Shown piece after piece: positions 24,584-29,531 of a DNA stretch of 64,000 nt (within the stretch, counting starts at the first letter, position 1; every line of letters begins with the position of its first letter). The notes under the pieces are model-generated. The model was not told the DNA's origin and did no database searches. It was given only the letters and a program-made list of their open reading frames with translations. The translations under genes were made by a program, and so were the position numbers. This DNA is from Thermodesulfobacteriota bacterium. GTDB taxonomy: Bacteria; Desulfobacterota; QYQD01. The stretch is taken from contig JAVHLC010000011.1 of the NCBI GenBank assembly GCA_031082315.1, forward strand, positions 35,117 through 99,116, written 5' to 3'.

Positions 24584-24728
24584 AGACTTCTGGATTTTAT
24601 GCTATCGGCTTATCTAGTTGATATTTAAGGATAGTACCTTTTATTGTACTGTTTGCCAAATTGTAGTATCATCGCTTTTATATGCGAGTTTTGATGAAAA
24701 AAGTCGAGTCGATATAATATATAATGTT
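24584..24728 (+). promoter_or_regulatory. Conserved array leader, copy 1 (attI-like right end plus sigma-70-like promoters)
   Basis: About 93% identical to 45257-45400, and similarity ends exactly at GTT (24726-24728). Promoter candidates: TTGTAC-N17-TATCAT (24644-24672) and TTGATG-N16-TATAAT (24691-24718). Confidence 0.6.
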
Positions 24729-24751
24729 CGGCCGGAAAGGAGATTCAGACG

Positions 24752-25471
24752 ATGGAATGGTCCCAGGCATTGGATGAGGTTCGCAAGTTCACATTCAAGA
24801 TCATTACCCCGCAAGGCTCCGGGACTGGATTCCTCATCACCCTTCGCGAACAAGGGGTCTGCGGTGTCGCCACGGCATACCACGTGATTGAACACGCCTT
24901 CTCGTGGGAGGAACCAATCAAACTGCTTCACACCTTCACAAACAGGACGATCCTCCTCCGAGTACCTGATCGGTATATCCTCCCAAATCCCACAAACGAC
25001 GCTGCGATCGTCATGTTCATGAAGGGCGATCTTGACGTCGACGGCAACCTGCTGACCCTCGCACCGGAAGACAAGTACCTTCGGCCAGGCAATGAAATAG
25101 CTTGGGCGGGCTACCCCGCAATCGCCCCTGACGAGTTTTCATTCTTCAACGGTCACGTCAGTTGTTACCTGAACTCGGCCAATGCCTATCTTGTTGATGG
25201 CGTAGCCATCAATGGTGTAAGCGGCGGGCCGACATTCACAATGATCGACAGCCAAGTTTATGTGATCGGAATTGTATCTGCCTACATTCCCAACAGGATC
25301 ACCGGCGAGAGCCTGCCGGGGGTGTGCTTCGTGACGGCCGTTAAGCCCTTCCACGAGTTCATGAAGGACATCGCCTCTCTTGAGCAGGCAAAAACGAAAG
25401 CAGAGATTGCCGAACCAAGCACTGCAAGCGACATGGTACCCGCGACTGCGCCGCGTGTCCCACGCGCCTGA
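24752..25471 (+). CDS. Trypsin-like (S1/Trypsin_2) serine protease
   Basis: GSGTGFLI, His in TAYHVIEHA, Asp in NDAAIVMF, Ser in INGVSGGPTF. RBS GGAAAGGAG. Confidence 0.7.
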   Translation: MEWSQALDEVRKFTFKIITPQGSGTGFLITLREQGVCGVATAYHVIEHAFSWEEPIKLLHTFTNRTILLRVPDRYILPNPTNDAAIVMFMKGDLDVDGNLLTLAPEDKYLRPGNEIAWAGYPAIAPDEFSFFNGHVSCYLNSANAYLVDGVAINGVSGGPTFTMIDSQVYVIGIVSAYIPNRITGESLPGVCFVTAVKPFHEFMKDIASLEQAKTKAEIAEPSTASDMVPATAPRVPRA

Positions 25472-25503
25472 GTGCCGTCGTTGGGCTGCTGAGAGAGTCG
25501 AAC

Positions 25504-26385
25504 ATGAACACCATTGCCAAGCCACCCGTTTCTGGAGTCGTCCTCGGAATCGATGTAGGCTTTTCTGCGAAATCGGCGACGACGGGTCTTTGTCTGCTGA
25601 GTTGGGACACCAATTCTATGAAGATCTCGTTCGTACGCACACGGACAGGAAGTGTTGACCGGCGCAGGGATATACGTGCACTCGTCGGTAGCGCTCAATT
25701 GCTCGCTGTGGCGATTGACGGTCCCCTCGTTCGTGGCCTTCAGCGCATCTCGCACTATCGCGCAGCAGAGGCTCTTCTTTCTCGGAGTGTTCTCCAGAAG
25801 CGAGGCAAACCTGGTCAAACCAACTCGCCAGTTGGTCAGCAGTTACACGCTCACGCTACCGAACTGGCTGAAATCGTGCTCACTGAATGTGCAGTCGATG
25901 CAGCGGCGCACTACCAGGCGATTCACGAACGTTGTATCGTAGAAGCGTTCCCGAACATGTTCCTCGCCGCTGGCGTCCCTGAGGCAGAGCTTCCGAGTCT
26001 TCGCCGCAATGCATCCGATGCGTATTGGAGAGGTCTTGTGGTTCAGAGCGGGCGGTTACTTCAACTTATGGGCAGTCTCCTTCCTGGACGGAAACCTTCG
26101 TGCGAGCTTTGCACATTCATCAACCATGAAGACCGTGCCGCATTTGTTTGTGCGCTTTCCGCATTGTCAGTCTTATCACAACGGCACGTGGCTGTCGGCG
26201 ACCCATACGATGGCGATATTATCCTGCCACCACGGATTTGGTGGGGCAAAGCGTCAATTGGTACCAACCCGTGGATGGAAGTTGTCCTTCGCGACAACTT
26301 GGCTTCAGTCCGTCGTAGCAGGAATGGCAGTAAGCATCATGGCGACGCGCGCGTGGTTCTGCATGCCGGCGAATGGCAGCTGTAG
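25504..26385 (+). CDS. Hypothetical protein, possibly an RNase-H-fold (DUF429-like) nuclease
   Basis: GIDVGFS...AIDGPL...RAAEALL...EAFPNMFL resembles the DUF429 motif order as I recall it. Higher GC than its neighbours. Starts 32 nt after the protease gene. Confidence 0.4.
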   Translation: MNTIAKPPVSGVVLGIDVGFSAKSATTGLCLLSWDTNSMKISFVRTRTGSVDRRRDIRALVGSAQLLAVAIDGPLVRGLQRISHYRAAEALLSRSVLQKRGKPGQTNSPVGQQLHAHATELAEIVLTECAVDAAAHYQAIHERCIVEAFPNMFLAAGVPEAELPSLRRNASDAYWRGLVVQSGRLLQLMGSLLPGRKPSCELCTFINHEDRAAFVCALSALSVLSQRHVAVGDPYDGDIILPPRIWWGKASIGTNPWMEVVLRDNLASVRRSRNGSKHHGDARVVLHAGEWQL

Positions 26386-26411
26386 GAGTTACGTGGACTG
26401 GTTGGCCTAAG

Positions 26412-26976
26412 ATATAACGTTCATGCAGAACGTGCTTGACGAATTGTGAATAAGCAGGACATCCGCTTGGGGCGGACGGCAGTTACTCTATCTCCCGAAC
26501 CCCGGGGCTTCGTCATGTTATGCTGACTTGCCCGGATAGTTGGCTTTGTACGCCATTTACTCGCCACGTCCTGTGGCTCGCCCTTCGGGCCAGCAAATCT
26601 GTTCAAAATTGTTTATCCTGACGATTTTGTCTGTTCCCCGGATCAAGTCCGGGGCAGGCTTGACTCATAGCTTTGCAGTCCGGGTTACCGCTCCCTGCGG
26701 TCGCTCTCGCCGTTGGCTCGTGGTCTCCGCTACGCTCTGGACCCTTCAGACGGTCTCTCACGATTCCGCCCTTGCCTTCGGCTAGTACTTCTGCTAACGT
26801 ATCACTAAGTAGGCAGGGTTCACCCTGTTAAATTCCCCCCAGGGAACCCTATTTAACAGGGTAAACGTACAGGGGGGACTTACACCCCATAAGCTCACGC
26901 CCATGCCGGGCGTACACAATTCGTTCAAGAGGGACGCGGCATAAGGCCGCCGCGCCCCTTAGCTTTGGAGTTCGGG
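26412..26976 (+). other. attC-type site A, interrupted by an intron-like element
   Basis: Without 26419-26917 it reads ATATAAC-AATTC-GTTCAAG-AGGGACGCGGC-ATAAGG-CCGCCGCGCCCC-TTAGCTTTGGA-GTTCGGG (66 nt). The left half matches the classical 59-be pattern AAC-AATTC-GTTCAAG as I recall it. Confidence 0.7.
26419..26917 (-). mobile_element. ORF-less group II (class C-like) intron-like RNA, copy A
   Basis: Minus strand starts GUGUACGCCCGGCAUGGGCGUGAGCUUAUGGGGUGUAAGUCCCC and ends ...CAUGAAC (AY). It shares GCAGAAGUA, CUGAAGG, GAGUAAAUG and AAGUCAGCA blocks, in order, with the O. iheyensis IIC intron as I recall it. No RT ORF. Confidence 0.6.
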
Positions 26977-26987
26977 CCTAAAAGAAA

Positions 26988-28204: not shown

Positions 28205-28210
28205 GGACTG

Positions 28211-28744
28211 GCGGGACGTTCATGCAGAACGTGCTTGACGAATTGTGAATAAGCAGGACATCCTCTTGAGGCGGACGGCAGTTACTCTATCTCCCGAACC
28301 CCGGAGCTTCGTCACGTTGTGCTGACTTGCCCGGAGACTGGGCCTGGTATGCCGTTTACTCGCCACGTCCTGTGGCTCGCCCTTCGGGCCAGCAAAGCTG
28401 TTCAAGATCGTTCATCCTGACGATTTTGTCTGTTCGTCGGCTCATAGCTTTGCGCTCCGGGTTACCGCTCCCTACGGTCGCTCTCGCCGTTGGCTCGTGG
28501 TCTCCGCTGCGCTTCGAACCCTTCGACGGTCTCTCACGATTCCGCCCTTGCCTTCGGCTGGTACTTCTGCTAACGTATCACTAACTAGGCAGGGTTCACC
28601 CTGTTAAATTCCCCCCAGGGAACCCTATTTAACAGGGTGAACGTACAGGGGGGACTTACACCCCTTAAGCTCACGCCCATGCCGGGCGTACACAACTGCG
28701 TTCACGCGACCTCGTGACCTCGGCGCGTGACCCACATGTTATTA
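28211..28744 (+). other. attC-type site B, interrupted by an intron-like element
   Basis: Without 28218-28693 it reads GCGGGAC-AACTGC-GTTCACGCG-ACCTCGTGACCTCGG-CGCGTGA-CCCACAT-GTTATTA. Confidence 0.6.
28218..28693 (-). mobile_element. ORF-less group II (class C-like) intron-like RNA, copy B
   Basis: About 90% identical to copy A with the same ends. Lacks one ~23-nt hairpin. Shows at least one compensatory U-A to C-G change in a small stem. Confidence 0.6.
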
Positions 28745-28785
28745 TGCTTCTTGATAGTAAGAATTAAGAGGAGGGGAAATAGTAT

Positions 28786-29217
28786 ATGAATTGTTTTATA
28801 ATTATGCCCATTACAACTCCTGAAGAGCTGTTACCCCTCTACAATAATCCCAATCATTTTAAAAATGTGCTTGACTACCTACTCACACCTACGGTCAATG
28901 AAGCAGGAATGGAACCTATTCCACCTAGTTCTGAGGCTTCAGAAATTATTCATGCAGACATTATCTCAAAATTAATATCTGCTGCAATTGTCCTATGTGA
29001 TATATCAACACTTAATGCAAATGTCTTTTTCGAACTAGGAGTTCGTACCTCACTTAATAAGCCTGTTTGTTTGATTAAAGATGATCGCACAAATTCAATA
29101 CCTTTTGATACTGCTCCCATCCATTGCAAGACATATAGAAGCGGTCTGACAATTATGGACCATGCAGAAGATAAAAAAAAGAAATTAAACGCAAAAGGTA
29201 TTTGGAGTAAGCTATGA
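28786..29217 (+). CDS. Nucleoside 2-deoxyribosyltransferase-like / TIR-like Rossmann protein
   Basis: CFIIMPI...AAIVLCDISTLNANVFFELGVRTSLNKPVCLI pattern. AT-rich cassette. Confidence 0.45.
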   Translation: MNCFIIMPITTPEELLPLYNNPNHFKNVLDYLLTPTVNEAGMEPIPPSSEASEIIHADIISKLISAAIVLCDISTLNANVFFELGVRTSLNKPVCLIKDDRTNSIPFDTAPIHCKTYRSGLTIMDHAEDKKKKLNAKGIWSKL

Positions 29218-29450
29218 AAAAATCAAAACAGGCTTTACCGGGATTTGTGGTTTGTATCAATAACATAGATTATCCGGCATCATTAGAACTCCATAAAATT
29301 TATCGTGTGCTTCCAGATGAAGATGCTGCTGCCGAAGGGGATATTCGAATTATTGATGAAAGTGGAGAGGATTATTTATACCCCTCTTCCTATTTCGTTC
29401 ACATCCAAGTTCCTCAAACGGTTGAAGAGTCATTACTTAGGGCGTCATAA
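29214..29450 (+). CDS. Small conserved hypothetical protein (78 aa)
   Basis: ATGA-coupled to the upstream ORF. IRIIDESGEDYLYPSSYF resembles a recurrent small-protein family of unknown function, from memory. Confidence 0.5.
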   Translation: MKKSKQALPGFVVCINNIDYPASLELHKIYRVLPDEDAAAEGDIRIIDESGEDYLYPSSYFVHIQVPQTVEESLLRAS

Positions 29451-29452
29451 TT

Positions 29453-29531
29453 TAAGAACCCGTGCCGAACATCAGCTTGGAGAAGGATGCTCGTTCCGCT
29501 GCGCTTTGGCCCATAGAAAGGGCCGTTGACC
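29453..29531 (+). other. Degenerate terminal attC-like region of array 1
   Basis: TAAGAAC-CCGTG-CCGAACA left half (its reverse complement matches the cassette start GTTATTA 6/7). The right half is poorly palindromic. Candidate R' is GTTGACC at 29525-29531. Confidence 0.35.

Follow-up and report, generated by a model that had tools for sequence, protein, structure and literature searches.

An integron-type cassette array at a conserved attI-like leader, lacking a nearby integrase

Introduction

Clusters of attC sites lacking an integron integrase, known as CALINs, comprise on average about five attC sites (Cury et al., 2016; PMC4889954). Integron attC sites are in turn targeted by group IIC-attC introns, which insert at TTGT/T (PMC3001079; PMC7923331), and truncated introns reported in arrays lack their 5' end (PMC7923331). 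How does the locus described here, array 1 of a 64-kb window (the whole stretch of DNA analysed, which also holds a second array, array 2), compare with these systems? The locus is a genuine array of mobile gene cassettes of the integron type and, as the 64-kb window contains no integron integrase, it is of the CALIN type rather than a complete integron. Like a CALIN, it is small, its several attC sites share one orientation, its cassettes lack promoters and are unrelated in function, and neither intI nor an intI pseudogene lies within 10 kb. Unlike a CALIN, it is headed by a conserved leader whose core is invariant and ends in the crossover GTT; copies of this leader occupy many chromosomal loci per genome and occur in related species too. 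A literature search of limited scope found no earlier description of such a shared attI-like array head.

Results

The leader and its crossover point

The leader (24578-24725, plus strand) is AT-rich (29% GC) and was characterized by repeat comparison and a promoter scan as attI-like, with promoter-like sites. The leaders of the two arrays, originally described as identical, are in fact about 89% identical over 151 nt (array 1 versus 45251-45397), with full identity confined to a 43-nt block and the last 25 nt. The leader core, GTCGAGTCGATATAATATATAATGTT, is invariant, ends in GTT and is kept at 17 further loci in related MAGs and metagenomes (eight genome and nine metagenome loci), in at least ten chromosomal contexts and with up to three loci per MAG. 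At every leader locus the sequences diverge immediately 3' of this GTT; homology extends no more than 1-3 nt further in any copy, which places the attI-like crossover point at the leader end, between the G and the TT (24726-24728, plus strand). From these crossover positions only, we infer that the leader may serve as attI. Two promoter-like sites, TTGTAC-17-TATCAT (24644-24672) and TTGATG-16-TATAAT (24691-24718), could provide a cassette promoter, but chance matches are expected in so AT-rich a sequence (7 promoter-like matches versus 4.1 +/- 2.2 in shuffles).

The comparison of cassette content with relatives that had been proposed shows variation at the array 2 locus and at the L013/L019 locus: among close relatives, the first cassette differs at one and the same locus between W2, L007 and L015, and likewise between L013 and L019. 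For array 1 no fully syntenic relative was found, and its sole comparison at a like-flanked leader, the second leader of L003, covers 9 nt beyond GTT. No integron integrase turned up within the window or in the neighbourhood of the leader copies at the 17 other loci, whether by Pfam analysis of every plausible ORF, by a scan for IntI motifs (with a positive control) or by tblastn using two IntI proteins as queries.

Detection of attC sites

The covariance model R1 was trained solely on ten attC sites of class 1 integrons, all taken from plasmids, and was run over the whole window on both strands with filters off (a search space of 128 kb) and with the inserts described below in place; its E-values are rough, owing to a short calibration. 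The top three matches (46255-46313, E = 3e-7; 25409-25486, E = 6e-5; 45769-45832, E = 1e-3) all lie within the two arrays on the plus strand, as do the weaker matches at 27647-27723, 46932-47020, 26916-26971 and 27724-27774, and R1 also detects attC sites 3' of the relatives' leaders, in the orientation of the leader. In array 1, the attC scan suggested by the original prediction thus gave only one site that is significant on its own, at 25409-25486; attC A and the two halves of attC B reached E = 1-9, and attC C (at E <= 10) and the terminal site gave no match in the window scan.

The attC geometry R''(7)-5-L''(3)-bulge-stem / stem-L'(3)-5 or 6-R'(7) is present in 10/10 known sites. Three sites of array 1, attC 1, attC A and attC C (the latter two with inserts removed), each score 8/9; among the 1844 AAC...GTT pairs that form the background of the window, 12 (0.65%) reach 8 or more. 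Moreover, opening heptamer and closing R'' match 7/7 as reverse complements in eight pairs, each located exactly at an ORF end: those of cassettes 1 and 3, of the three cassettes of array 2, of L005 and, twice, of L006. The independent covariance model, the canonical geometry, this heptamer rule and the relatives together support what had been proposed, an integron-type array with heterogeneous attC sites and a leader shared with array 2.

Cassettes and their boundaries

Array 1 contains at least five cassettes, or six units if an 80-nt ORF-less piece within attC B is counted; the four originally proposed are too few, since attC 1 divides the former first cassette in two. In order, the cassettes encode a trypsin-like protease, proteins of 293 aa and 218 aa (the second possibly a HEPN protein), a DUF2703 protein in truncated form, and a TIR-like protein alongside a 78-aa ORF. 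Cassette 1 (24727-25480, plus strand) encodes the trypsin-like serine protease (ORF 24752-25471; Pfam Trypsin_2, E = 1e-5), with PADLOC matches to LmuA (5.8e-14), RT-Protease and the Avs1b N-terminal region. Its opening heptamer GTTCGGC, confirmed at 24726, pairs 7/7 with the closing GCCGAAC of attC 1. As this is its real partner, the further GCCGAAC at 29464, present as reported and considered puzzling, needs no special explanation. attC 1 itself (25409-25486, plus strand; 26.6 bits, second best in the window), missed by the first reading, overlaps the 3' end of the protease ORF and reads GCCGAAC CAAGC ACT G CAAGCG..CGCCTG AGT GCCGTC GTTGGGC, with a bottom-strand hairpin of dG -21.3 whose 3' arm has two bulged bases.

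The body of cassette 2 (25481-26418, plus strand) opens with GTTGGGC, the G of which, at 25480, is part of attC 1, and carries the 293-aa ORF (25504-26385), for which PADLOC gives a partial match to PDC-S44 (1.6e-10) and Pfam no family. The expected closing GCCCAAC is absent, its place being taken by ATATAAC (26412-26418), the R''-side flank of attC A. The right part of attC A (26918-26976, plus strand), identified by geometry and a local R1 match at 26916-26971 (9.9 bits, E = 2.7), comprises spacer, L'', stem-loop, L' and the R' GTTCGGG. With the insert removed, the site reads, as predicted, ATATAAC AATTC GTT C AAGAGG ... CCCCTT AGC TTTGGA GTTCGGG, and its proposed closeness to the classical 59-base element is borne out by AACAATTCGTTCAAG, identical in 15/15 positions to the aadA1 and GES-14 attC sites. 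It belongs to the attC family of L009 6635-6764.

Cassette 3 (26971-27646, plus strand) carries the 218-aa ORF (26988-27644), whose product is possibly HEPN-like, with an invariant RNxxxH motif and marginal fold matches. Homologues in unrelated arrays likewise precede attC sites, in one case next to an intI fragment, and the family is also present in a complete integron elsewhere. The pairing of GTTCGGG at 26970 with CCCGAAC at 27647 (7/7) is as originally stated, and so is the 132-nt imperfect palindrome that follows, ending in GTTGGCT (27647-27778, plus strand; bottom-strand dG -34.9, z = -3.8 versus shuffles). This site, attC B, is composite: R1 divides it into 27647-27723 (11.3 bits, E = 1.1) and 27724-27774 (8.0 bits, E = 9.3), it scores 5/9 on strict single-site geometry, and its internal GTT at 27695 is a junction in the relative L003, joined there to the attI GTT.

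The body of cassette 4 (27773-28217, plus strand) contains a small ORF (27792-27884) and a DUF2703 gene (27881-28204; Pfam 1.4e-34, profile positions 1-106 of 120). This gene is shortened at its 3' end, the L003 copy being 95% identical up to 28203 and then continuing for about 50 extra codons; the cassette, the fourth unit in the window, stands in L003 directly after the leader and one 80-nt ORF-less unit. With the opening GTTGGCT and a closing-side flank GCGGGAC, it breaks the heptamer rule. This flank leaves attC C without a proper R'' on its left side, while its right part (28694-28744, plus strand; stem-loop, L' and the R' GTTATTA) was recognized by geometry after insert removal and has a constrained fold of dG -10.6.

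Cassette 5 (28739-29452, plus strand; 36% GC) holds ORFs 28786-29217 and 29214-29450, the first resembling TIR or nucleoside 2-deoxyribosyltransferase proteins (PADLOC TIR effector, 3.8e-6; Pfam Nuc_deoxyrib_tr, 2.5e-5, under the cut-off). Its GTTATTA at 28738 pairs 6/7 with TAAGAAC at 29453, in line with the earlier reading. The array ends in a site (TAAGAAC ... GTTGACC; 29453-29531, plus strand) that was rightly called degenerate: it is an attC that has degenerated or decayed, without an R1 match, with a geometry score of 2/9 and a fold z of -0.7. The predicted GC mosaic was likewise recovered, with 55.6% at 25500-26400 and 36.8% at 28800-29400 versus 50.5% in the whole window. Defence-like cargo, also predicted, finds weak support in partial effector-domain matches and, for the HEPN ORF, in the motif and marginal fold matches named above.

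Intron fragments within two attC sites

Insert 1 (26419-26917, minus strand; Rfam RF02001, 30.5 bits) is an antisense group II intron fragment that consists of domain I only, without ORF or domains II-VI and without an Rfam match to RF01998 or RF00029; its 5' end, GTGTACGCCCGGCATGGG, agrees with the full-length introns L010 and L011. Insert 2 (28218-28693, minus strand; RF02001, 35.1 bits, above the gathering score) is a second domain-I-only copy, 92-96% identical to the first and without a 22-nt segment of it. Each derives from a group IIC-like intron, runs antisense, retains domain I alone and sits at the target known for IIC-attC introns. The original reading as introns is thus to be amended: the fragments are dead, their left flanks differ from the native R'' boxes of the cassettes, and stripping the insert to read the attC works cleanly at attC A only. 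The cassettes that end at inserts, 2 and 4, are the two that break the opening/closing rule. A possible route is that a group IIC-type intron invaded two attC sites on the bottom strand, at the usual IIC-attC position, and that a subsequent rearrangement kept its domain I only, truncated the DUF2703 gene and put other sequence in place of the native R'' boxes, so that cassettes 2 and 4 would now probably be frozen in place.

Outside array 1, downstream of a catalase, lies a domain V - domain VI remnant of the same intron family (31128-31200, minus strand), 84% identical to L006 and without an Rfam match at E <= 1; its consensus fold with L006, L010 and L011 has DV and DVI hairpins with 6 compensatory pairs.

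Surroundings upstream of the leader

An 81-nt copy of the 3' end of an SBF transporter gene (24380-24460, plus strand), 89% identical to 34778-34858 within the full gene at 33941-34894, marks a past rearrangement 5' of the leader; in L003, an intact SBF gene is followed by a REP element and a leader. Between fragment and leader lies a REP-like repeat (24461-24552, plus strand) of a genome-wide family (copies at 8607-8753, 41231-41377 and 45115-45190), which is separate from the integron machinery. A RAYT-like gene is located at 19049-20056.

Discussion

We consider it likely, with a probability of roughly three in four, that array 1 is of the CALIN type and occupies an orphan attI/promoter platform on which an integrase acts in trans. 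Cassettes would be inserted between the G and the TT that terminate the AT-rich leader of about 150 nt, which would act as an orphan attI with a cassette promoter; recombination would depend on an integron integrase whose gene lies elsewhere in the genome or on a visiting element, and the cassettes would be transcribed rightwards from the leader promoter.

Could the array instead be a fossil, its cassettes and leaders being relics of a now inactive integron system with an integrase nowhere in the genome? The lack of intI in 64 kb and near 17 leader copies would agree with this, as would the degenerate terminal attC, the dead intron fragments disrupting two attC sites, the truncated cassette gene, the rearrangement evident from the duplicated SBF gene fragment, and the finding that 50% of CALINs occur in genomes without IntI (Cury et al., 2016; PMC4889954). 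However, flanks that are 93-96% identical enclose wholly different first cassettes and break exactly at GTT (three variants at the locus of array 2, two at that of L013/L019), which points to recent site-specific turnover; a fossil array would have to explain these differences by old events or by homologous recombination between the 150-nt leader copies. Moreover, several attC sites are still perfect, and the core has stayed the same in two leader subfamilies that diverge elsewhere, suggesting selection on it. We regard a fossil array as unlikely.

Less probable still is that the leader is not an attI, but a dispersed, promoter-bearing MITE-like repeat whose terminal GTT is a secondary, attG-like insertion site. 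Its ragged left end, its many contexts and the REP-like repeats often adjoining it would fit such an element, and integrases can insert cassettes at genomic sites other than att, where nearby promoters drive their expression (Loot et al., bioRxiv 10.1101/2022.09.11.507474). However, the junction falls on the same GTT in 19/19 leader copies, and the best-conserved part, the roughly 36 nt before GTT, is more readily explained as a protein-binding site than as a chance target. In addition, the long form of the leader has a second GTCGAGTCGAYATAA motif about 170 nt upstream, reminiscent of attI1, which contains repeated integrase-binding sites. That the locus is unrelated to integrons, its palindromes being REP elements or terminators and its heptamer matches chance, is highly improbable and was rejected: REP-like palindromes do abound in the genome and a simple R''/R' and folding scan yields many false matches in coding DNA, but a model trained on class 1 attC alone ranks array sites top in 128 kb, the L-box bulge geometry and the eight 7/7 pairs at ORF ends are present, and the ORF family of cassette 3 recurs in a complete integron.

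Like the sedentary chromosomal integrons, such as the Vibrio superintegron, array 1 is chromosomal, with cassettes whose function is mostly unknown or defence-like, attC sites that are related within the lineage (attC A and its L009 counterpart at 6635-6764) and a cassette content that differs among close relatives; unlike them, the arrays here are short (1-6 cassettes), lack an adjacent intI and occupy several platforms per genome instead of one. The sites share geometry, structure and detectability by R1 with class 1 attC sites (59-base elements, e.g. that of aadA1), whereas attC B, composite and 132 nt long, and the terminal site are atypical, and the array resides in a different host lineage without resistance genes. 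As with the group IIC-attC introns (S.ma.I2 and relatives), the inserts lie on the attC bottom strand, antisense to the cassettes, between R'' and spacer, with a class C-typical 5' end and with insertion sites that agree with the known target within a 2-nt GT ambiguity; in contrast to these introns, they comprise domain I only, without reverse transcriptase ORF or domains II-VI, and both end at one point next to 3' flanks that are not native R'' boxes, so that they miss the 3' end rather than the 5' end missing from the truncated array introns reported (PMC7923331). Finally, as with the isolated cassettes at attG sites (Loot et al., bioRxiv 10.1101/2022.09.11.507474), the cassettes lie away from any integrase and would be expressed from a local promoter, but while attG sites are scattered over the genome, the target here is a conserved, repeated element of about 150 nt with one fixed GTT.

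Results

To what extent do the putative attC sites of array 1 (24584-29531, + strand) follow the rules of established ones? A simple scan for R''/R' boxes and folding was dropped as too unspecific, with many matches in coding DNA, and a covariance model was used together with a fixed geometry. The model, R1, was built from ten class 1 attC sites out of four arrays (aacA4, arr-3, dfrA27, aadA1, GES-14, dfrA7, OXA-1, catB3, dfrA1 and gcuC), all taken from outside this genome to avoid circularity; a sequence of the aadA1 attC and 3' conserved segment, used as a query, matched thousands of plasmids at 100%. 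MAFFT misaligned the right halves of full-length sites, and N-padded modules were used in its place for the R1 alignment. All ten sites share the geometry R''(7), 5 nt, L''(3), one bulged base, stem / stem, L'(3), 5 or 6 nt, R'(7), with the L box paired 3/3 in each.

Both strands of the window were scanned with filters off and the inserts in place, R1 being a proxy and not IntegronFinder's attC model. The three best matches, with E-values that are rough because the calibration was short, are 46255-46313 (34.7 bits, E = 3e-7), 25409-25486 (26.6 bits, E = 6e-5) and 45769-45832 (22.2 bits, E = 1e-3), the second of which, attC 1, belongs to array 1 and the others to array 2 (45251-47020, + strand). 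Further matches in the arrays are 27647-27723 (E = 1.1), 46932-47020 (E = 1.7), 26916-26971 (E = 2.7) and 27724-27774 (E = 9.3). Every match with E < 3, as well as 27724-27774, lies within one of the two arrays on the + strand, and the four others (E = 3-9) are short hairpins. The original prediction had expected attC models to recognize its sites in array 1; this holds weakly for attC A (26412-26976) and the two parts of attC B (27647-27778), but not for attC C (28211-28744) or the terminal site (29453-29531), which R1 does not detect. The one strong match of the array, attC 1, is a site that the original prediction lacked.

Scored for the fixed geometry, attC 1 reaches 8/9, as do attC A and attC C with their inserts removed, a value attained by 12 of the 1844 AAC...GTT pairs of the window. 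An L box with an extrahelical base is seen in attC 1 (ACT G / AGT), attC A (GTT C / AGC) and the array 2 sites W2a and W2b; this geometry of L box and spacers is absent from attC B read as a single site and from the terminal site. Pairing between R'' (RYYYAAC) and R' (GTTRRRY) is found in attC 1, A and B and in the array 2 sites, the left flank of attC C has GAC where AAC is expected, and R'' and R' of the terminal site pair poorly. The latter, already described as degenerate, indeed fails in R1, geometry and folding alike. The third attC site of array 2 is the weak match at 46932-47020, with R' GTTCACC.

As a rule, a cassette opens with seven bases (GTTxxxx) that are reverse-complementary to its own R''. 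All heptamers cited in the original prediction are where it placed them, but its first cassette is not a single unit: attC 1 (GCCGAAC ... GTTGGGC), overlapping the end of the protease ORF, cuts it in two, and the R'' of attC 1 is exactly reverse-complementary to GTTCGGC, with which the array opens. A puzzling second copy of GCCGAAC, at 29464, is present as described, but the true partner is the R'' at 25409, which makes a meaningful pairing of the later copy with cassette 1 needless. Most simply, this copy is due to chance, with a probability of about 0.5% for a 79-nt stretch, having been found after many comparisons. With these boundaries, opening and closing heptamers agree at 7/7 in cassettes 1 and 3, as they do throughout array 2 (three cassettes), and at 6/7 in cassette 5; cassettes 2 and 4, which break the rule, are exactly the two that end at inserts. 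The rule also holds at 7/7 at R1-detected sites of related loci (once in L005, twice in L006), and in L013, L018 and L020 a walk along the sequence alone finds exact closing heptamers at the end of the ORF.

For attC B, the 132-nt palindrome at 27647-27778 was confirmed, folding far better than shuffled sequences (z = -3.8). As a single unit it allows R''-R' pairing at a small energy cost, yet does not satisfy the strict geometry. A split at the internal GTT seems less likely, as 27647-27701 and 27725-27778 fold like shuffles (z about 0) and R1 prefers a division into 27647-27723 and 27724-27774. In the related locus L003, the GTT of the leader is joined to the internal GTT of attC B (27695 in the window), leaving an 80-nt unit devoid of an ORF ahead of the DUF2703 cassette. 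AttC B is a composite site.

AttC A and attC C are interrupted by insert 1 (26419-26917, - strand, 499 nt) and insert 2 (28218-28693, - strand, 476 nt), which are 92-96% identical and lie on the bottom strand, antisense to the cassettes, between R'' and spacer. Their 5' ends match group II introns that are present at full length on plasmids of Methylocalor (L010) and Thiothrix (L011); in these introns Rfam recognizes domain I (RF02001) and domains II-III (RF01998), and in L011 also domains V-VI (RF00029). In the inserts, Rfam finds only a partial RF02001; RF01998 and RF00029 are absent, and the alignment stops just past domain I. Neither insert contains an ORF, so no reverse transcriptase is encoded. 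With domain I alone and no ORF, the inserts are relics unable to splice or move. A reading of the insert tail as an inverted attC or as domains V/VI was rejected, as it had neither a fit by eye nor an Rfam match. Both inserts end at exactly the same base, though unable to transpose in this form, and their left flanks differ from the expected R'' boxes. Cassette 4 has a DUF2703 gene that breaks off at 28203, where the 95%-identical copy in L003 reads on. In L009, an attC belonging to the attC A family has the R'' GCCCAAC, exactly that expected for cassette 2, which opens with GTTGGGC.

Other traces of introns were noted. Directly downstream of the catalase gene lies a domain V-VI remnant of the same intron family (31128-31200, - strand), with a consensus fold, six compensatory pairs and a 3' splice end at 31128; Rfam does not detect it. 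The catalase gene (29567-31075) was rejected as an extra cassette, as this remnant stands in place of an attC after it, and the neighboring 415-aa ORF (31250-32497) was rejected as a decayed intron reverse transcriptase, as it has no RT domain. Locus L006 (raw 118-679, +) holds a complete ORF-less group II intron, antisense to its array, which matches RF02001, RF01998 and RF00029 and is 94% identical to insert 2 across domain I. In L005 (leader-oriented ~1770-2015) and L009 (~5492 onward), group II intron 5' ends (GTGTGCTGGGCATGG...) lie exactly at the expected attC R' box, in sense orientation, in contrast to the antisense IIC-attC pattern.

Each array follows a leader of about 150 nt (24578-24725 and 45251-45397). 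The two are not identical, as had been claimed, but agree at about 89% across 151 nt; a 43-nt block and the last 25 nt are identical. The leader core GTCGATATAATATATAATGTT was found at eight true loci, plus one chance match, in species-representative genomes and at nine loci in metagenomes. An alignment yields an element of ~150 nt with two subfamilies in the promoter region and last ~36 nt that are almost invariant in both; the sequences after the final GTT differ in all 19 copies. Promoter-like hexamers, including TTGATG-16-TATAAT ending 8 nt before the GTT, are only suggestive because the region is AT-rich. There are at least ten contexts, among them positions after thiC, after RNase H, after a PilT/metallopeptidase cluster and after an SBF transporter gene, and single MAGs carry two or three copies. 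R1 finds attC sites downstream of leaders, always in leader orientation, in L002, L003, L005, L006 (two), L008, L009 (two), L016 and L019. At the array 2 locus, flanks of 93-96% identity enclose three different first cassettes (window, L007 and L015), with the break at the GTT; L013 and L019 likewise have both flanks in common and different cassettes. In L017 (leader-oriented 3557-3632 and 4353-4445), a leader copy is apparently split by an insertion of about 720 nt.

Is there an integrase? Pfam searches of all ORFs of suitable size in the window returned no intI, and a six-frame scan for IntI motifs found nothing there while picking up IntI1 in class 1 control loci. Tblastn gave noise alone (E >= 1.6), whether the query was IntI1 or the IntI fragment of L026, and the searches were equally empty for the roughly 117 kb that surround the 17 remaining leader copies.

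The cargo had been called defence-like, which stands insofar as PADLOC gives partial or weak effector matches: the protease is similar to protease effector domains found in defence proteins of the Lamassu, AVAST and RT-protease types (5.8e-14 and weaker), a candidate defence family is partially matched by the 293-aa protein (1.6e-10), and the match between the 143-aa protein and a TIR effector is weak (3.8e-6). None of the three amounts to a complete known defence system. The 218-aa ORF is a possible HEPN protein, with an Rx4-6H motif in which R155, N156 and H160 are invariant or nearly so in 38 homologues, and with marginal fold matches; it has no family HMM match, and Foldseek found nothing in the PDB for its model. 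Its homologues are cassettes elsewhere, with an attC directly after the gene in L025, L026 and L030, and in L026 an intI fragment lies divergently upstream. The DUF2703 cassette stands behind a leader in L003, so that both this gene and the 218-aa family are found in other arrays. A 30-codon ORF resembling a lipoprotein signal peptide (27792-27884) overlaps the DUF2703 start codon by ATGA.

The window comes from the chromosome of an uncultured member of the Thermodesulfobacteriota. The 218-aa protein is 100% identical to the NCBI MAG protein RDU59_10645 (Thermodesulfobacteriota), and at the DNA level the closest MAGs bear the labels Thermodesulfobacteriota, Smithella sp. and Deltaproteobacteria. 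According to Pfam, array 1 is surrounded by housekeeping genes (Glu/Gln-tRNA synthetase, EF-G, DNA polymerase III subunits, PilT ATPases, Opp transporter). Its predicted GC mosaic was recovered, with cassettes ranging from 55-56% down to 36% in a window of 50.5%.

Several repeats accompany this setting. An 81-nt copy of the 3' end of the SBF transporter gene (34778-34858) lies at 24380-24460, upstream of the first leader; in L003 an intact SBF gene is followed by a REP sequence and leader, and in L005 the array adjoins a ferritin gene which in the window adjoins SBF. REP-like palindromes occur at 8607-8753, 24461-24552, 41231-41377 and 45115-45190, with one copy just upstream of each leader, and a RAYT-like gene (19049-20056) combines an IS200-type Y1 transposase domain with a DnaA C-terminal HTH. 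A second repeat family, upstream of genes at 41571-41727, 56546-56696 and 62154-62303, contains GCTGA-rich tracts and a CCGGAAAC...GTTTCCGG hairpin.

Discussion

What kind of element is array 1? A complete integron would have intI beside the array, which is not the case here. A CALIN is defined by at least two attC sites close together and no intI within about 10 kb (PMC4889954). With a well-supported attC 1, weak matches to attC A and both parts of attC B in the right place and on the right strand, attC A and C at 8/9, and no intI by any search, array 1 is by this published definition a CALIN. It is a genuine integrase-less integron cassette array in partial decay, located at an attI-like leader used repeatedly, both along the chromosome and within the lineage.

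How such arrays arise is a wider question, as CALINs are as frequent as complete integrons and their origin and activity are unsettled. Here, a conserved attI-like insertion site with a putative promoter serves many loci without an integrase, and cassettes turn over exactly at the GTT between close relatives. A tentative reading, to which we give somewhat less than even odds, is that of a 'dispersed' integron in a Syntrophales/Smithella-like lineage, in which scattered orphan platforms of attI plus promoter each capture a small array by means of an unlinked integrase acting in trans. Such platforms would adjoin housekeeping genes, in at least ten contexts and with up to three seen per incomplete MAG. 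If an integrase acts in trans, integron activity in uncultured anaerobes would be wider than integrase-centred surveys suggest; if the dispersed reading is true, the capture site would be uncoupled from the integrase as a stable genome architecture, and the CALINs of this lineage would gain a defined origin. The leaders also appear to mediate chromosomal reshuffling, and their sequence could be used to anchor PCR or searches aimed at the cassettes of this lineage.

For the inserts, the simplest scenario is that copying or recombination brought a truncated intron into both positions along with foreign DNA flanking it, at the expense of the native left ends; the end point common to the two, ...AC|GTT..., is a hint of some site-specific step. 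Here group II introns have targeted attC sites and decayed in place, and the resulting chimeric sites probably lock cassettes in. This interplay is relevant to a long-standing proposal in which introns of this kind link genes to attC sites.

Among known systems, the full-length plasmid introns L010 and L011 are located after hairpins, like class C introns. The bottom-strand junctions of the inserts, ...GAATT(GT)|... and ...CAGTT(GT)|..., coincide with the published IIC-attC target TTGT/T (PMC7923331) within a 2-nt GT ambiguity, whereas the full domains I-VI and a reverse transcriptase of the IIC-attC lineage are missing, the inserts consisting of domain I alone. As for the shared orphan leader, we found no description of it in the open-access papers that were searched. 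The array itself belongs to a known kind of element; the unusual part is this leader.
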